Shown: in pieces, positions 12,277 through 19,943 of the stretch
How positions within the stretch are numbered: position 1 is the stretch's first letter
How the letters are laid out: each line of letters begins with the position of its first letter
Program-made: the position numbers and the translations under genes
The notes under the pieces: model-generated
Seen by the model: the letters and a program-made list of their open reading frames with translations, nothing else
Database searches by the model: none
What the model was told of the DNA's origin: nothing
Source of the DNA: Minisyncoccota bacterium
GTDB taxonomy: Bacteria > Patescibacteriota > Minisyncoccia > Phycocordibacterales > Phycocordibacteraceae
Direction of reading: 5' to 3'
DNA length: 64,000 nt
NCBI GenBank assembly: GCA_017991635.1
Contig: JAGOQE010000001.1
Location: 65,008 to 129,007, forward strand

Positions 12277-12687
12277 TTATGCCTTAGGCTTCTTAGCTCC
12301 GTAGCGAGAACGTCCACGACGACGCTTGTCGAGTCCTGCAGTATCGAGCTTACCGCGCACGATAGTGTACTGCACACCGATGTCCTTCACGCGACCACCG
12401 CGTAGAAGTACCACTGAGTGCTCCTGGAGGTTGTGTCCTTCACCTGGGATGTAGGCAGTAACTTCCATACCGTTAGTAAGGCGAACACGGGCAATCTTAC
12501 GGATAGCTGAGTTAGGCTTGCGGGGAGTCTTGGTAGTTACCTTTACACAAACACCGCGCTTGAATGGAGATGGGTAGAACTCGGGGCGGTTCTTAAGCGT
12601 ATTGAATCCACGAGAAAGAGCCACCACTTTTGATTTGCGGGTCTTGTTCTTTCGTGACGTCTTGGTCAATTGGCTGATTGTTGGCAT
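12277..12687 (-). CDS. rpsL: 30S ribosomal protein S12
   Basis: 136 aa; [15 protein letters not shown]...[16 protein letters not shown]; Arg at the K43-equivalent position and loss of the P91-equivalent residue. Confidence 0.95.
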
Positions 12688-12767: not shown

Positions 12768-15700
12768 TTAGCTCTGAACGAAGGTGTTTCGTGGGTCCAC
12801 CTTACCATTTTTGAAGCCTATCACCATTTCGAGCTTCTGATTTCTACGCTTCTTTTGAAGTGCCACAAAGGCATATTTCTGGAAATCCTTGTTTTCACAG
12901 GCTGATTTGATGGTTTGGTACGCCTCCCCAGAGACCTCTTCCTGACCTCCAGTTAGGGTAATGCCAAGCATTTGGTCAGGATTGCTCGTTAGTTCAAAAG
13001 AGAGCTCACCCGTAAATGGGCGCCCGTTTCTTCCGAAGACCTCTATTTTATTACCCACTTCATAGGCCAAAAGAGGTGAAAGAAGGCGAATTTCGTTTGT
13101 AATGTTGTTTGGAATGGCTATATTCTCAGGATTTACGGTTCTCGTAAGCCACTTTGTCTCACCCTCCTTAATACCTTCACCAAGACCAACCGTTAGTGGC
13201 ACCTCCCTTCGAGCAGTCATTTCCCCCTCTGGAAGAAGTACTTCCTTTGAGTTGAGCCAGATGTTCACCGCTGCCTGAGTGTCCGGAGCTCTAAAACCAA
13301 TAGCAACAGCGTTTTCCGCTCCGTTTCGAAGCAAGGCATCACGAGGTTCTTTAGGAAGTTGGGAGAGTTTTGCAAGCTGATCGAACTGAGGACGAGACGC
13401 CGTTCCTAGTATGAGGACATTAGGGTCAGTGGAGAGCGTATCAGCAACAGGCACAGCTTTGTTCGTTGGAAGATTGAGTGGCGTTCGTAGCGTTGGTGCA
13501 GTTTCTGCCTTCTTCATGGCATACGCATCAAGAATTGTATCGAGTTCTGAGCGGAACCCAGTCGCCGCGATAACACTGTTTGCGAGAATTGGTTTTCCTT
13601 CCCTATCCCTTATAGGTTGCCCAGCGGTATCAAGAACAACAAGCTGACGGTCCTCAGGTGCCGACTCTAACGTTGCATACCCGACATCAGCCACACGACC
13701 AGGGATTTGTTCAATCAAGTTTCCGCGACCGTTTCGTGGACGAAGGTCGTTAATTTGTGCGTAGCGAGGACGAGCAGAAAGTTCACCCTCAGCAATGACA
13801 TAGATTTTTGTAACATCACGCACGCGTGGGTTGTCTCCTTGAAACACGCTTCCAATGTATTCAATCAGAGTGTCAGCAGAGTTTCCCTTTCCGTAAATTA
13901 CGAGTGTCTCTCCAGGTGAAAGATCTTCGCCACTTCTGTTTGCGAGCGCTTCAAACGCTTCAAGCGTCTGACTAATCTTTGGAAAGCCCTCTGAATCTTT
14001 TGTGTCGCGAATAATTTGTTCTGCTTTAGAGCCTTCAAGTTTGAAACCAAAGCCTGGCTCACCAAGTCCAGTGGACGCGAAGATTGCATCAGTTTTTATT
14101 TTCAGTTGATACCCCTCTTTTCCACCCACCTGAAGTGTTACGATTTTGTCTCCTGCATCTTCTTCGTTTGGATTCGGGTCAACAGAAACAACACGCGTCT
14201 CTAGAGCCAGATTTTTTACAAGCATTGCAGTTTGTAGTGAAAGTACTGATTGCAATTCTTCATTTGTTGGATACCGCGCACTAGAAAGATCATCAGGTGT
14301 TGGCAGATAATCTACGGTCGTATTGATACTTCCCTGACGAATGTCGCCGTTATCTTTTCGCTCTCCCGGGTACCAGCGAAGCGGACTACCGTATGCACGT
14401 ACCGTTTTAATTTCATCTCCATTGGGTTGGTCGGGAAGAGTGGGTGCTCCGTTTCCGCGCTTGTTTGCACTATTCAATTCCCACGCAGCGCCTTTTGGAA
14501 TTGCGAATGGTCCACCAGGTTGTTCACCTGCGTCAACTACAAGAGCATTCTCTGCAAGCGCCGGATTATTTCGCACAAGTTCACCAAAGGCAGCGATGCC
14601 GTTTGGTCCAGTACCAATTTGAAGAAGGGGGATGTAGTCGCCGTCACGAAGATTCGCAAGGGTGTTTTCTGAAAGTGTATCAAAGTGATGACGGAGAAAT
14701 TCATTCGTTGTTCCTGGGTCAGCAGTAATTGCCGCAATAAGGTATGGATTAAAGACTGAGAGAAGTTCAACGGACTCCAAGTACGCGCGTTCGGTATCAG
14801 TGAGTGGACGCTGTTCTTCAAATGCACTCACGCGCTGTTCAAATTTTCTTCGAGGACTCACCACCTCTCCATTCATCTTTGTTGGCCTATCAAGTACAGA
14901 TGCGACATCGTCTGCAGTAGTACCATCAGCACGAAGTGATTCCACAAGCGGAAATACCGTTTCAATAAATCGCTCGCGCATATAATTAAATGCTCGTTTA
15001 TTCCTTCCTAACTCAGGACACGCGAAACGCTCTTTGAGTCCTTGAATTTCTCGCTCACGAATCTCTCCTGCAAAACGCTCATCAAATATTTCAGGACGAT
15101 TACCCGCCACATAACTTCGGTACAGAGTGAAGAGTTCTCGTCGTATCGCTTGGTCCTCTGCAGTCTCTCCTGGGAAATTATCAATCTCCGCGAGTATTGT
15201 GTCGGGTGAGCCAGTTGCGAAACTTTCTCGGAGTACAGTCGCACGTTCAATACGTCTGAAATTTTGAATGTCTTGGATATCTTGTGATACGCGCTCACGA
15301 ATTTCATTCACCGCATTCACATAATCAAACTCTCCAAACGAAGGACGAAGTGGAATAGTATCTAAATAAAGACGCAGGTCATCTTCAGTTGCGTCGAGCT
15401 TCACCAAATCTTGTGCACCCTTACTAAAGTCAGCGAGCTCGGCCTTGTATGCAGTGTTCACCAAGACAGCGCCGGCCTGTCTGTCCTTATCATCTCCCGA
15501 GCGAAGAAGCTCGCCAGCACTTGCAAGGACTGCTTCAATATTTCTGCTTTGTGGCGGGAGACTCTTTACTGCCTCTCGCACAATATTTTCACGGCGTTTT
15601 GCGCGAAGCACATCTTGAAGTTCACCAACAACTTCAAGACCTTCAAGATTTCCTTGCTCGAATGTAGCGAGAAGTGGTGCAAGCTCTTCAGGTTTTCTGC

Positions 15701-16820
15701 CTTCTGCAAGTCCTCCGTATATCTCCTTTCGCAAGTTTGCGCTTCGCTTTTCTGCATCAAGTTCTTTCAGGAGAGAGACAACTTCTGTTCGCAGTTCTTC
15801 TGAAGAAGACATCGCCATCACTGCTTCCATGCGCTCAACCATCCCCGAATTTTGGGTGAGCGCTCCCCTGATACTTGTTTTAACTTCGTCTGGAACCTTA
15901 GGATTATCCAGTATCTTTGTGATTCTTTTGATTATTGTCCCTTGCGCTGATGAGAGAGTTCCTCCTTCTGTAACTCTTTTGGTTAGTATTTCTTGTCGTA
16001 ACCCAAATTTTATAGCGTAACCATTTAATCTGTAGATACCACTGCTTTCGTCAATGGTTAAGTTCGGATTTGTGAATGCATTCACAACTCTCTCATCCAA
16101 ATCTCCAGAAAGAATGCCTTTTGTAACGAAATTAATTCCTGCAATTTGTGACTCCGCATTCGCTTTGCCACCTTCCAATAGTGCCTTGGACTTTGCAATC
16201 TCACGAAGCAGTAAAGATTGCTCCTTCGTTATGACCCCACCGCCGGTCACTCTTGTAGTTAGAACCTCCTCGCGTGGTCCATATTTGATGGCGTAGCCAT
16301 TCAACCTATAGATGCCATTATCCCCTTCTGTAGTTATGTTTGGGTTAGCAAGTGCGTTGATTACTTTTTCATCAAAATCTCCAGTAACGGCTTTATTAAA
16401 AACGCTCTGAAAGCCAACAGTTTCATTGTCTGAACTACTCTTCTTTAGATTCTCTCTTGTGGCGTCAACAGAGAGGCGGGCAAGTATCCTTGCGTTCTCT
16501 TTCGTGAGAACACCTCCGCCGGTCACTCTTGTAGTTAGAACCTCCTCGCGTGGTCCATATTTGATGGCGTAGCCATTCAACCTATAGATGCCATTGCCTT
16601 CATCTATTTTCAGATTTGGATTTGCGAGTGCATTGATTACTCGTTCTTCTAAAATACCCGTTGACGCTTTCCCAAAAACGAATTTAAACCCATTCACCTC
16701 AGCGCGGTCTTGCTCCACGCTTTTGAGCGGACTCTCCACCGCGCCTTCGGCGCGGTCATTCACTCCCTCTTTAGGCGCCTTCGGGCGAAATGCTCGCTCC
16801 ATATATATGCAGTATCGCAC
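12768..16820 (-). CDS. giant protein (1350 aa): N-terminal tandem repeats plus embedded two-dinucleotide-binding flavoprotein-like core
   Basis: Three ~92-aa repeats (GIYRLNGYAIKYGPREEVLTTRVTGGG); later LLQIGTGPNGIAAF (GxGxxG), LVIYGKGNSADTLIEY (GxGxxA), VIAATGF (ATG motif), as in N-hydroxylating monooxygenase or pyridine-nucleotide-disulfide oxidoreductase folds. Confidence 0.7.
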   Translation of the reverse strand: MRYCIYMERAFRPKAPKEGVNDRAEGAVESPLKSVEQDRAEVNGFKFVFGKASTGILEERVINALANPNLKIDEGNGIYRLNGYAIKYGPREEVLTTRVTGGGVLTKENARILARLSVDATRENLKKSSSDNETVGFQSVFNKAVTGDFDEKVINALANPNITTEGDNGIYRLNGYAIKYGPREEVLTTRVTGGGVITKEQSLLLREIAKSKALLEGGKANAESQIAGINFVTKGILSGDLDERVVNAFTNPNLTIDESSGIYRLNGYAIKFGLRQEILTKRVTEGGTLSSAQGTIIKRITKILDNPKVPDEVKTSIRGALTQNSGMVERMEAVMAMSSSEELRTEVVSLLKELDAEKRSANLRKEIYGGLAEGRKPEELAPLLATFEQGNLEGLEVVGELQDVLRAKRRENIVREAVKSLPPQSRNIEAVLASAGELLRSGDDKDRQAGAVLVNTAYKAELADFSKGAQDLVKLDATEDDLRLYLDTIPLRPSFGEFDYVNAVNEIRERVSQDIQDIQNFRRIERATVLRESFATGSPDTILAEIDNFPGETAEDQAIRRELFTLYRSYVAGNRPEIFDERFAGEIREREIQGLKERFACPELGRNKRAFNYMRERFIETVFPLVESLRADGTTADDVASVLDRPTKMNGEVVSPRRKFEQRVSAFEEQRPLTDTERAYLESVELLSVFNPYLIAAITADPGTTNEFLRHHFDTLSENTLANLRDGDYIPLLQIGTGPNGIAAFGELVRNNPALAENALVVDAGEQPGGPFAIPKGAAWELNSANKRGNGAPTLPDQPNGDEIKTVRAYGSPLRWYPGERKDNGDIRQGSINTTVDYLPTPDDLSSARYPTNEELQSVLSLQTAMLVKNLALETRVVSVDPNPNEEDAGDKIVTLQVGGKEGYQLKIKTDAIFASTGLGEPGFGFKLEGSKAEQIIRDTKDSEGFPKISQTLEAFEALANRSGEDLSPGETLVIYGKGNSADTLIEYIGSVFQGDNPRVRDVTKIYVIAEGELSARPRYAQINDLRPRNGRGNLIEQIPGRVADVGYATLESAPEDRQLVVLDTAGQPIRDREGKPILANSVIAATGFRSELDTILDAYAMKKAETAPTLRTPLNLPTNKAVPVADTLSTDPNVLILGTASRPQFDQLAKLSQLPKEPRDALLRNGAENAVAIGFRAPDTQAAVNIWLNSKEVLLPEGEMTARREVPLTVGLGEGIKEGETKWLTRTVNPENIAIPNNITNEIRLLSPLLAYEVGNKIEVFGRNGRPFTGELSFELTSNPDQMLGITLTGGQEEVSGEAYQTIKSACENKDFQKYAFVALQKKRRNQKLEMVIGFKNGKVDPRNTFVQS
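15940..16770 (-). repeat. in-frame tandem repeats (~276-bp unit, 3 copies) in the 5' part of the giant gene
   Basis: 83-bp stretches at 16240-16322 and 16516-16598 are identical, offset 276 bp; a third copy near 15960-16040 is diverged. Confidence 0.65.
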
Positions 16821-16883
16821 GCACTGTCGCTAAAACTGCACTTATTTGCGTTTTGAGTTGGGGAATTGTGCTACGATTTTTCT

Positions 16884-19800
16884 ATGTCGAGGGTGGTGTG
16901 GCAATTCTCCGCACTTCTCATCTTGCTTACTGCAGGACTTCCTTTCTTGGTGCTTGCTGATGAAGTTGCAGAGCCGTCTGAACCAGAGATCCTTCCTGTT
17001 GAAACTCCCGCCCCAGAGGAAGTGATAGTGGAGACGACACCTGAGCAGACTGAAGCCACGACAACTATTGAAACTGTTCTTATACCTGAGGAAGAGACTG
17101 GGACGAGTACTGAGGAAACCTTGTTTAAGACTGCAGACATAGAATCTACCGAAGTTTCTATGACGACGGGCGTTGAGGCGCCAGAAACAATTAATGGAGG
17201 TGAGACTGTTACATGGATCAAGGCTGGTGGACCATATCTGGTAACCAATACTTATATATATGGTGGTGGCACACTTATTATTGAGCCAGGAACGGTAGTT
17301 AAAATCAGAAAAGATGGAGATATAGGTGTTGCGGGCACGCTTCAAGTCGGTGCGAGTGGTAGCGAAGATGTAATCTTTACCTCAATTGCAGATGATTCGT
17401 ATGGCGGTGACTCTGATGGCGTTGTTGCAAATCCTGAGGATTATCGATGGATGCGTATTAATTTCAGCTGGAATGGTGGGTCCGGAACTTTTAATAATGC
17501 ACGCTTCCGACACGGCGGGAGTGAAGCGACAGTAGTCGCCTGTGCCGGAACGGTTTCGATTTCTAATACTGTGTTCGAAGCAATTTCTGGTGATCAACTG
17601 CGACTCTGCAACGGGAACGACATCACTGTTGACCATGCGGACTTTCAAGGACAACGAACCATTGCCTATTTCTCAGGTGGCTCACTCAACGTTACGAACT
17701 CGGCCTTTAGGAACGTTTCTTACACGCCATTTGAATTCTTTGGTCCTCACCCATGGACCATTTCAGCACTAAATAATTGGTGGAACGACGCAAGCGGTCC
17801 TTCATATTCCCTAAATCAAACAGGTCTGGGTCATGTAGTGCCTGACAGCGCAGATGTTGTGCCGTGGCTTACAGAGGACCCTTTCCTTACACCTCCTCCA
17901 GTAGAGACAGGTCCGTCAAACGTATTGTTCTTGCCTGGAATTAAAGGAAGCTATCTCTATAAGGAGCGTGAGGATTGTGTACTGTTTTCGCTTGAGTGCG
18001 AAGATACACTTTGGCTTCCCTCTCTCTTTGAGCAAGTGACGGAACTTTTCTTAGATAGTGACGGAAAAAGTATTAATGAAGTGTATGTAAAGAAAGGCTC
18101 TGACGGTGTATTGGAAAGTGCGTTTGGAATGAAATTCTATGCCTCGTTTGTGGAAGATATGGACGCTCTTGTTACAGATAGCACGATCAACGACTGGGAA
18201 GCAGTACCCTATGATTGGCGCCTCTCACTCCCCGACCTACTTTCTAATGGCGTTGAGGACAATGGTCGTATTTTCTACGGACAGGCCAGTTCAACACCAT
18301 ATATTGAACAGACACTCCGCGAACTAGCCCGCACGTCTAAATCAGGCAAGGTAACTATAGTTGCCCACTCAAATGGTGGACTAGTTGCAAAAGCCTTAAT
18401 GCAAAAACTCGGTGAAACTGAGACAGTCAAACTTGTTGATGATGTTATTTTCGTAGGTGTCCCGCAACTCGGAGCACCTCAAGCGCTTGGTGCGCTTTTG
18501 TACGGAGACCGCGAAGCTCTTCCGACAAAGTTTACGGGTGGACTATTAGTGGACCAGAAAAAAGCGAGGCAACTCGCTGAGAATACACCAATGGCGTATC
18601 ACCTTCTTCCCTCTCAAACCTATTTTGAAACAACACAAGACGGCGCTCATCCTGTAGGAAAGTTTGCCAATGAAGAAATGTACGCGAGTGAAATATCCGC
18701 GCATGGAAAGCTGATTGGAAACTCTGATGAGCTTTATAACTTTCTTCTCGCGAAAGATGGTGGAAGAACGAAGCCTCCGCCTGAAGAGATTGATATTGCG
18801 AATATTCTCAATTCAACGCTCATCACATACGCAAAAGACACTCATGAAACATTAGACAGCTGGGTCCCGCCTTCTGGTGTGACTCTCTACCAGTTTGCAG
18901 GCTGGGGCGCGGACACCGTCGCCGGTGTTGAATTTAATGGCTGGTGCAACCAGCTTGTTGGATGCACGCAAACATACAAACCTATTCTGGTTGAAGATGG
19001 CGACAAGGTGGTCCCTGCTCCAAGCGCTCTCCACACATCAAGTGATGAAGCTACAGTGAACAGATACTGGATTGATTTAAGCATCCTCCCCGGCCCATTT
19101 AAACCAAATCATGGAAATTTATTTGAAATTACTGAGGTAAAAAACGCACTAGTCAGCATTATAGGTGGAACCGAAATACGAACAGGTACGATATTGAACT
19201 CAACTCAGCCCGCCAGTCGCTCAGCTGAAAAGAAGTTACGTTTCTACTTGCACTCACCACTTACACTTGGAGTCTATGATGAGAACGAAAACTACACAGG
19301 GCAAAATGAAGACGGCTCTGTTTCATTTGAGGTTGATGGAGTGGATTACGGAACATTCGGTGAAACTCAGTATCTTACGGTCTCTGGTGATGAAAACTAT
19401 ACACTGGCTCTCGACGGACTTGATGACGGGACATTCACTCTCGAGATAGAGGATATCGTTGGTGAAGAAGTTACCGCATCAACGACCTTCGTGGGTATTC
19501 CAACAACTGCTGACACACAAGTCACTATGCAGATATCCAACAGAGAGTACACGGAAACGACACTGAATATTGATGAGGACGGGGACGGGACTCAAGACAC
19601 GCAGATTCCCGTAAGCGCCGGTGATGTCTACTTCTACGAAGTACCCCAAACAATTGAAAACTTTGGTGGTGGCGGACGCTCAAACAATGAAGGAACAGGC
19701 ATTGTGTTTGGGACTTCCACTGAGGCTGTTCCTGAGGCAATTATTTCACCCCCTCTAGTCACTAAAGCAACTTCGGTACTCACCGAACCGGTAACTCTCT

Positions 19801-19943
19801 ACTCAGGCACTGAAGTCACCGCACATCCTGAAGTATCCGAGCAGTCTCAACAGCTAGAGAAAGACCCTCTGTTGACTCTCATATACAATTTACTAAGTAA
19901 CTTTCTGAATTTTTTCCTAGAACTCTTTGGAATCAAAACTTAA
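16884..19943 (+). CDS. secreted protein with right-handed beta-helix domain and GxSxG lipase/alpha-beta-hydrolase domain
   Basis: Signal peptide; NGGSGTFNNARFRHGGSEATVVACAGTVSISNTVF beta-helix-like repeats; VLFLPGIKGS and TIVAHSNGGLVA (GxSxG); second Met at 16884 preferred over the ORF start at 16866. Confidence 0.6.
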   Translation: MSRVVWQFSALLILLTAGLPFLVLADEVAEPSEPEILPVETPAPEEVIVETTPEQTEATTTIETVLIPEEETGTSTEETLFKTADIESTEVSMTTGVEAPETINGGETVTWIKAGGPYLVTNTYIYGGGTLIIEPGTVVKIRKDGDIGVAGTLQVGASGSEDVIFTSIADDSYGGDSDGVVANPEDYRWMRINFSWNGGSGTFNNARFRHGGSEATVVACAGTVSISNTVFEAISGDQLRLCNGNDITVDHADFQGQRTIAYFSGGSLNVTNSAFRNVSYTPFEFFGPHPWTISALNNWWNDASGPSYSLNQTGLGHVVPDSADVVPWLTEDPFLTPPPVETGPSNVLFLPGIKGSYLYKEREDCVLFSLECEDTLWLPSLFEQVTELFLDSDGKSINEVYVKKGSDGVLESAFGMKFYASFVEDMDALVTDSTINDWEAVPYDWRLSLPDLLSNGVEDNGRIFYGQASSTPYIEQTLRELARTSKSGKVTIVAHSNGGLVAKALMQKLGETETVKLVDDVIFVGVPQLGAPQALGALLYGDREALPTKFTGGLLVDQKKARQLAENTPMAYHLLPSQTYFETTQDGAHPVGKFANEEMYASEISAHGKLIGNSDELYNFLLAKDGGRTKPPPEEIDIANILNSTLITYAKDTHETLDSWVPPSGVTLYQFAGWGADTVAGVEFNGWCNQLVGCTQTYKPILVEDGDKVVPAPSALHTSSDEATVNRYWIDLSILPGPFKPNHGNLFEITEVKNALVSIIGGTEIRTGTILNSTQPASRSAEKKLRFYLHSPLTLGVYDENENYTGQNEDGSVSFEVDGVDYGTFGETQYLTVSGDENYTLALDGLDDGTFTLEIEDIVGEEVTASTTFVGIPTTADTQVTMQISNREYTETTLNIDEDGDGTQDTQIPVSAGDVYFYEVPQTIENFGGGGRSNNEGTGIVFGTSTEAVPEAIISPPLVTKATSVLTEPVTLYSGTEVTAHPEVSEQSQQLEKDPLLTLIYNLLSNFLNFFLELFGIKT

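Follow-up and report, generated by a model that had tools for sequence, protein, structure and literature searches.

A large Patescibacteria protein family with a predicted cysteine-free tDBDF flavoprotein core behind a repeat-bearing N-terminal arm

Overview of the Protein

The open reading frame (ORF) at positions 12768-16820 of the window, i.e., the whole stretch of 64,000 nucleotides that was analysed, encodes a member of a family that is real and new, lies inside the known tDBDF superfamily and displays an undescribed architecture. The preferred reading, to which we assign a probability of about 0.7, is that the large proteins of this CPR (Patescibacteria) family carry a cysteine-free tDBDF enzyme core, in which NAD(P)H would reduce FAD, behind an N-terminal arm. 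CPR genomes are small, are usually described as having few redox enzymes, and encode many proteins that lack annotation. Here, a large, well-conserved and widely distributed "hypothetical" family gains a confident fold together with a testable hypothesis, namely FAD and NAD(P)H binding and a cysteine-free flavin chemistry. Moreover, the tDBDF superfamily is extended by proteins in which GT replaces GD, the core carries a conserved internal insertion, and both an additional C-terminal domain and an N-terminal arm of ~700 aa are present. The features of the protein are as follows.

12768..16820, minus strand: whole ORF, 1350 aa from GTG, with the stop codon at 12768-12770
16422..16700, minus strand: N-terminal repeat 1 (residues 41-133), composed of a long helix, a short helix, a beta-hairpin and a helix
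16149..16421, minus strand: N-terminal repeat 2 (residues 134-224)
15861..16148, minus strand: N-terminal repeat 3 (residues 225-320)
14751..15860, minus strand: all-helical middle region (residues 321-690), moderately conserved, without structural match
13236..14750, minus strand: predicted tDBDF flavoprotein core (residues 691-1195) comprising FAD and NAD(P)H domains; conservation within the protein is highest here
14511..14639, minus strand: predicted FAD dinucleotide-binding beta-alpha-beta unit (residues 728-770), with G736xG738xxG741, D763 ending beta2, and G769-G770
14265..14498, minus strand: family-specific, coil-rich, highly conserved insertion of ~80 aa after the GG motif (residues 775-852)
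13761..13907, minus strand: predicted NAD(P)H dinucleotide-binding beta-alpha-beta unit (residues 972-1020), with G977xG979-N-S981-A, K1005 and R1017-P-R1019-Y1020
13548..13580, minus strand: second "ATG"/GxxP motif (residues 1081-1091, NSVIAATGFRS), on the strand by which the chain returns from the NAD(P)H domain to the FAD domain
12771..13235, minus strand: C-terminal alpha/beta domain (residues 1196-1350), weakly conserved, outside the part aligning with known flavoproteins

The 1350-aa ORF is thus present as initially called, on the minus strand, while the NCBI annotation begins at M7 (ATG at 16802) and gives 1344 aa. M7 is the probable true start, since the N-terminal consensus of the family reads "MxxxF". 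Neither a transmembrane segment nor a signal peptide is predicted in the protein.

Family and Distribution

An exhaustive HMMER search recovers 127 family representatives at 50% clustering, 87 of them with E<=1e-30; members are mostly 1100-1500 aa long and come mostly from Patescibacteria, with a few in MAGs labelled Vampirovibrionia or Caenarcaniphilales; Kapaibacterium and "Gammaproteobacteria" labels also occur. In view of these representatives, the outcome of a word-indexed homolog search, which returned only the protein itself, is a sensitivity artefact. All 125 family matches in the annotated database are "hypothetical", a precomputed Pfam domain being found on 1 of 120, and cluster look-up of distant members gives "hypothetical protein" throughout. 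Moreover, Pfam searches with the longest and most divergent members and with a distant sister group reveal no informative extra domain, and literature searches found no relevant description of such a CPR family. The initial annotation had recognised no described family with this architecture, a view that holds for the family as a whole, which is unannotated.

Predicted Structure and Conserved Motifs of the Core

The AF2 model of residues 690-1350 (pLDDT 91.2, pTM 0.92) adopts the FAD/NAD(P)-binding two-domain fold, with beta1-alphaA-beta2 present at the FAD motif, and Foldseek retrieves 647 PDB matches at E<=1e-3, headed by SidA, KtzI, PvdA, FMO, YpdA and TrxR. Structurally, the core is nearest to the small TrxR-like group formed by YpdA/Bdr, type-II FMO/ArsO and low-Mr TrxR. 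For the conserved C-terminal half, an oxidoreductase domain binding FAD and NAD(P)H is predicted with high confidence. No more than ~300-330 of the 661 modelled residues are alignable to known enzymes, which was counted against the preferred reading.

The ordered GxGxxG, GxGxxA and ATG motifs on which the initial annotation had relied lie exactly where it had placed them: LLQIGTGPNGIAAF at residues 732-745 contains GxGxxG (736-741) and is followed by LVVD at 760-763, LVIYGKGNSADTLIEY at 973-988 contains GxGxxA (977-982), and NSVIAATGF occupies 1081-1089. CxxC is absent, again as claimed, the 1350 aa including 3 Cys. Conservation was counted over 54 family sequences sharing <=50% identity. On the FAD side, G736 and G738 are found in all 54 and G741 in 49, while D763, the acidic residue ending beta2, is kept in at least 90%; G918, between the two dinucleotide motifs, is found in 53. 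On the NAD(P)H side, G977, R1017 and Y1020 are invariant (54/54), followed by R1019 (53), G979 (52) and S981 (50), with A or T at 982; among later positions, the counts are 54 for G1088, 52 for F1089 and 51 for G1139. Mean top-residue frequency reaches 0.5-0.6 in the core versus 0.14-0.31 in the repeats, the helical region and the C-terminal domain. Thus, the proposal of a two-dinucleotide-binding core without CxxC at residues ~700-1150 is supported at the superfamily level by near-invariant motifs and by concordant AF2 and Foldseek results.

Could the motifs have arisen by chance in a non-flavoprotein? Compatible with this are the occurrence of the ordered triple, with compatible spacing, in 98 of 20000 protein shuffles (0.5%), a rate that by itself is suggestive and not proof, and the lack of any Rossmann/FAD profile match at E<=10 for the query alone. 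However, the conservation of the motifs across the 54 sequences excludes such an origin, and together with the AF2 model and the Foldseek matches it already refutes this explanation, whose probability is close to nil.

One motif needs to be reassigned. The ATG letters at 1086 are present, as noted initially, but they follow the second dinucleotide motif and therefore occupy the GxxP position ("ATGY" of NMOs). The canonical ATG position corresponds to S916-T917-G918, which follows conserved T910-D911, reads [SA][ST]G in the family and is paired by hhalign with the ATG of TrxB, i.e., it is a variant and not a literal ATG. At GxxP, position 1091 following the invariant G1088 is P in 23 of the 54 sequences and S in 20, including the query. 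A GD motif was not found, as G1139 is followed by T1140 in 45/54 and by D in 1/54.

Sequence-Profile Searches

The query alone, searched as the whole protein and as four fragments, gives no relevant Pfam, NCBIfam or PDB sequence match, which was also counted against the preferred reading. Pyr_redox_2 is reached by 4/19 and 6/17 family members (E 1e-5 to 1e-6), and weak NCBIfam matches in members point to the ArsO-FMO, YpdA and TrxR models. In hhalign comparisons, E. coli TrxB (P 9e-4) and IucD (P 8e-4) align with homologous motifs paired, including the second GxGxxG/A motif with the NADPH motif of TrxB, compared with 0.06-0.73 for reversed controls. Against PDB sequences, the family HMM from alignment A1 yields non-significant matches (FSP1, AIF and NDH-2 at E 1.4-2.5), that from A2 retrieves designed helical repeats, equally non-significant and attributable to the helical region, and that from the core-only alignment A5 finds nothing relevant. 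Taken literally, this is nearly the absence of profile hits on which the initial annotation would have given up the flavoprotein proposal, with no match for the query and few members reaching Pyr_redox_2; the predicted structure decides for a flavoprotein. The family is also a concrete example of a Rossmann flavoprotein that escapes Pfam, NCBIfam and PDB HMM searches and is recognised by structure prediction.

Comparison with Known Flavoproteins

The order DBM(FAD), ATG, DBM(NAD(P)H), GxxP and GD that characterizes the tDBDF superfamily (Ojha, Meng & Babbitt 2007, PMC1924876) is recognisable in the query family, as is the common fold. However, the family departs from it in reading [SA][ST]G at ATG and GT at GD, in the incomplete conservation of P in GxxP and in the large conserved internal insertion, whereas inserts are described as rare and peripheral in the superfamily (PMC1924876). 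Both the GT and the ~80-aa insertion within the scaffold, unusual for tDBDFs, were counted against the preferred reading.

Judged by its sequence, the protein fails the subclass tests applied for N-hydroxylases, TrxR, YpdA and FMOs. The Foldseek leaders SidA, PvdA and KtzI are N-hydroxylating monooxygenases (PF13434), as is IucD. The family profile of lysine/ornithine N-monooxygenases nonetheless does not support membership: PF13434 gives no match to the query at E<=10 and is reached by 2/19 members (best E 0.028) and 1/17 (0.074). The N-monooxygenase motif is D-x3-[LF]-ATGY-x4-[HP], and the family shows D1081 (47/54; N in the query)-x3-[AS]-A-T-G-F, with D, instead of H or P, as the fifth residue after ATGF in the query (ATGFRSELD). 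The class B FMO motif FxGxxxHxxx[YF], located upstream of the NADPH motif, is absent; in the equivalent segment, F946-P-K-I-S-Q-T952-L-E-A-F956, both F are kept while G is replaced by K and H by T. Regarding the small type-II FMOs (SMFMO, PDB 4a9w; ArsO family NF040505), matches of the query family fall far below the cut-offs, and architecture and size differ. A class B flavin monooxygenase of the FMO/NMO type, in which NADPH would reduce FAD and O2 would form a C4a-hydroperoxyflavin that oxygenates N, S or another nucleophilic substrate atom, is a tentative alternative, to be held with some doubt.

The redox-active CATC of low-Mr thioredoxin reductase (PDB 3cty; E. coli TrxB) is missing, I949..L953 of the query lying opposite to it, and assignment to TrxR or the class II disulfide reductases fails for the lack of CxxC. 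YpdA/Bdr bacillithiol disulfide reductase (PDB 7a76, 7a7b; TIGR04018) is a stand-alone enzyme of ~326 aa, whereas the query core adds the conserved insertion and a C-terminal domain of ~155 aa and is preceded by repeats and helices spanning ~690 aa. This assignment fails as well, since matches to TIGR04018 stay below the cut-off (1/17 members, E 0.023) and the position of YpdA Cys14 is N740 in the query and N, H, S, Q or E across the family. This Cys (GGPCG motif, Firmicutes) is itself not universal in YpdA (YpdA preprint).

A broader alternative, a flavin-only NAD(P)H:acceptor reductase of the YpdA or TrxR-like-FNR type that would deliver electrons or hydride directly to a disulfide, a quinone, an iron-sulfur protein or another acceptor, is possible and deserves to be kept in view, although it is by no means the favoured account. 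Besides the TIGR04018 result and the substitution of Cys14, it is opposed by the single TRX_reduct match (1/17 members, 0.076), by the insertion and the C-terminal domain, features that YpdA and TrxR lack, and by the absence of a conserved partner gene nearby in 39 loci.

Proposed Mechanism

In the preferred reading of a cysteine-free tDBDF enzyme, whose cofactor binding we infer from the model and the motifs, the first Rossmann motif (G736xGxxG, D763, GG769-770) would bind FAD, and NAD(P)H would bind at G977xGNSA and pass a hydride to the flavin. The nucleotide is probably NADPH, since the second Rossmann unit has two near-invariant arginines, R1017 and R1019, after its beta2. As no redox-active cysteine is available, the reduced flavin itself would react with the substrate or O2, in a pocket probably shaped by the Arg-rich, family-specific insertion at 775-852, where L782, N783, S784, P818, G819, R821, I832, N833 and Y850 are conserved in at least 90%. 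Further conserved residues are R828, within the insertion, T952 and N1170.

Alternatively, the tDBDF fold could serve as an architectural or nucleotide-sensing module of a large scaffold, devoid of redox turnover. Such a pseudoenzyme or structural protein appears improbable, because the glycines of both dinucleotide motifs, D763, R1017, R1019 and Y1020 are near-invariant at <=50% identity and the core is the most conserved region, as one would expect if cofactor binding and catalysis had been retained.

N-Terminal Half and C-Terminal Domain

Three repeats of ~92 aa had been proposed for the N-terminus, and they are found there, with pairwise identities of 49-69% over ~75 aa (z>36 versus shuffles) and of 68-80% in their DNA, although they escape TRF as a tandem repeat at the DNA level. 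Across the family, this helix-hairpin repeat occurs in 1-5 copies. The repeat profile matches nothing among PDB sequences, nor in a 5.8-billion-protein database at E<=1e-3, and a CsgF match to repeat 2 was dropped as sub-threshold (24.5 vs 25.8 bits) and otherwise unsupported. Foldseek against the PDB gives no match for the N-terminal half (best E 0.096), and the profile of the C-terminal domain has none among PDB sequences. The N-terminal half, i.e., the repeats and the helical region of ~370 aa, is probably a scaffold or targeting arm.

It may further be speculated, as an unlikely though attractive extension, that the family is a lineage-restricted tDBDF class (Patescibacteria and a few MAGs), in which the Arg-rich insertion and the private C-terminal domain would form the site for a macromolecular or unprecedented substrate, while the arm would tether the enzyme to a cellular structure. 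If so, it would parallel, in bacteria and by logic rather than ancestry, flavoenzymes tethered to scaffolds, of which MICAL is an example, and it could be connected with the epibiotic lifestyle. MICAL and CFAP61, large multidomain proteins with a flavoprotein-monooxygenase-like or tDBDF-like domain, offer an architectural analogy only, being eukaryotic, with other domain sets and no detectable homology to the query outside the Rossmann domains. The family would be of considerably more interest if its substrate were macromolecular or tied to host interaction.

Gene Neighbourhood

The ORF had been placed immediately upstream of a str-operon promoter. The operon is indeed adjacent, since rpsL (12277-12687, minus strand) begins 80 bp downstream of the ORF and is followed by rpsG, an NlpC/P60 gene, fusA and tuf, but the promoter was not confirmed, the gap holding only a terminator-like hairpin. 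On the other side, the divergent 1025-aa gene described as a secreted beta-helix/lipase is found at 16866-19943 on the plus strand, with a sub-threshold Beta_helix match, an LCAT-like alpha/beta-hydrolase match and a signal-peptide-like segment read from its N-terminal sequence. Rfam finds four tRNAs in the window and nothing else, and PADLOC anti-phage defence models have no match.

The str-operon adjacency is uninformative, because the neighbourhood is not kept in relatives. Neighbouring genes indicate no pathway in three contig look-ups and 39 loci, a further point counted against the preferred reading, and ORF clustering in these loci detects no recurrent conserved neighbour, apart from ABC ATPases of a generic kind and an ORF of 312 aa that has no Pfam domain. 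The latter lies downstream in three related loci, two of which are labelled Vampirovibrionia or Caenarcaniphilales.

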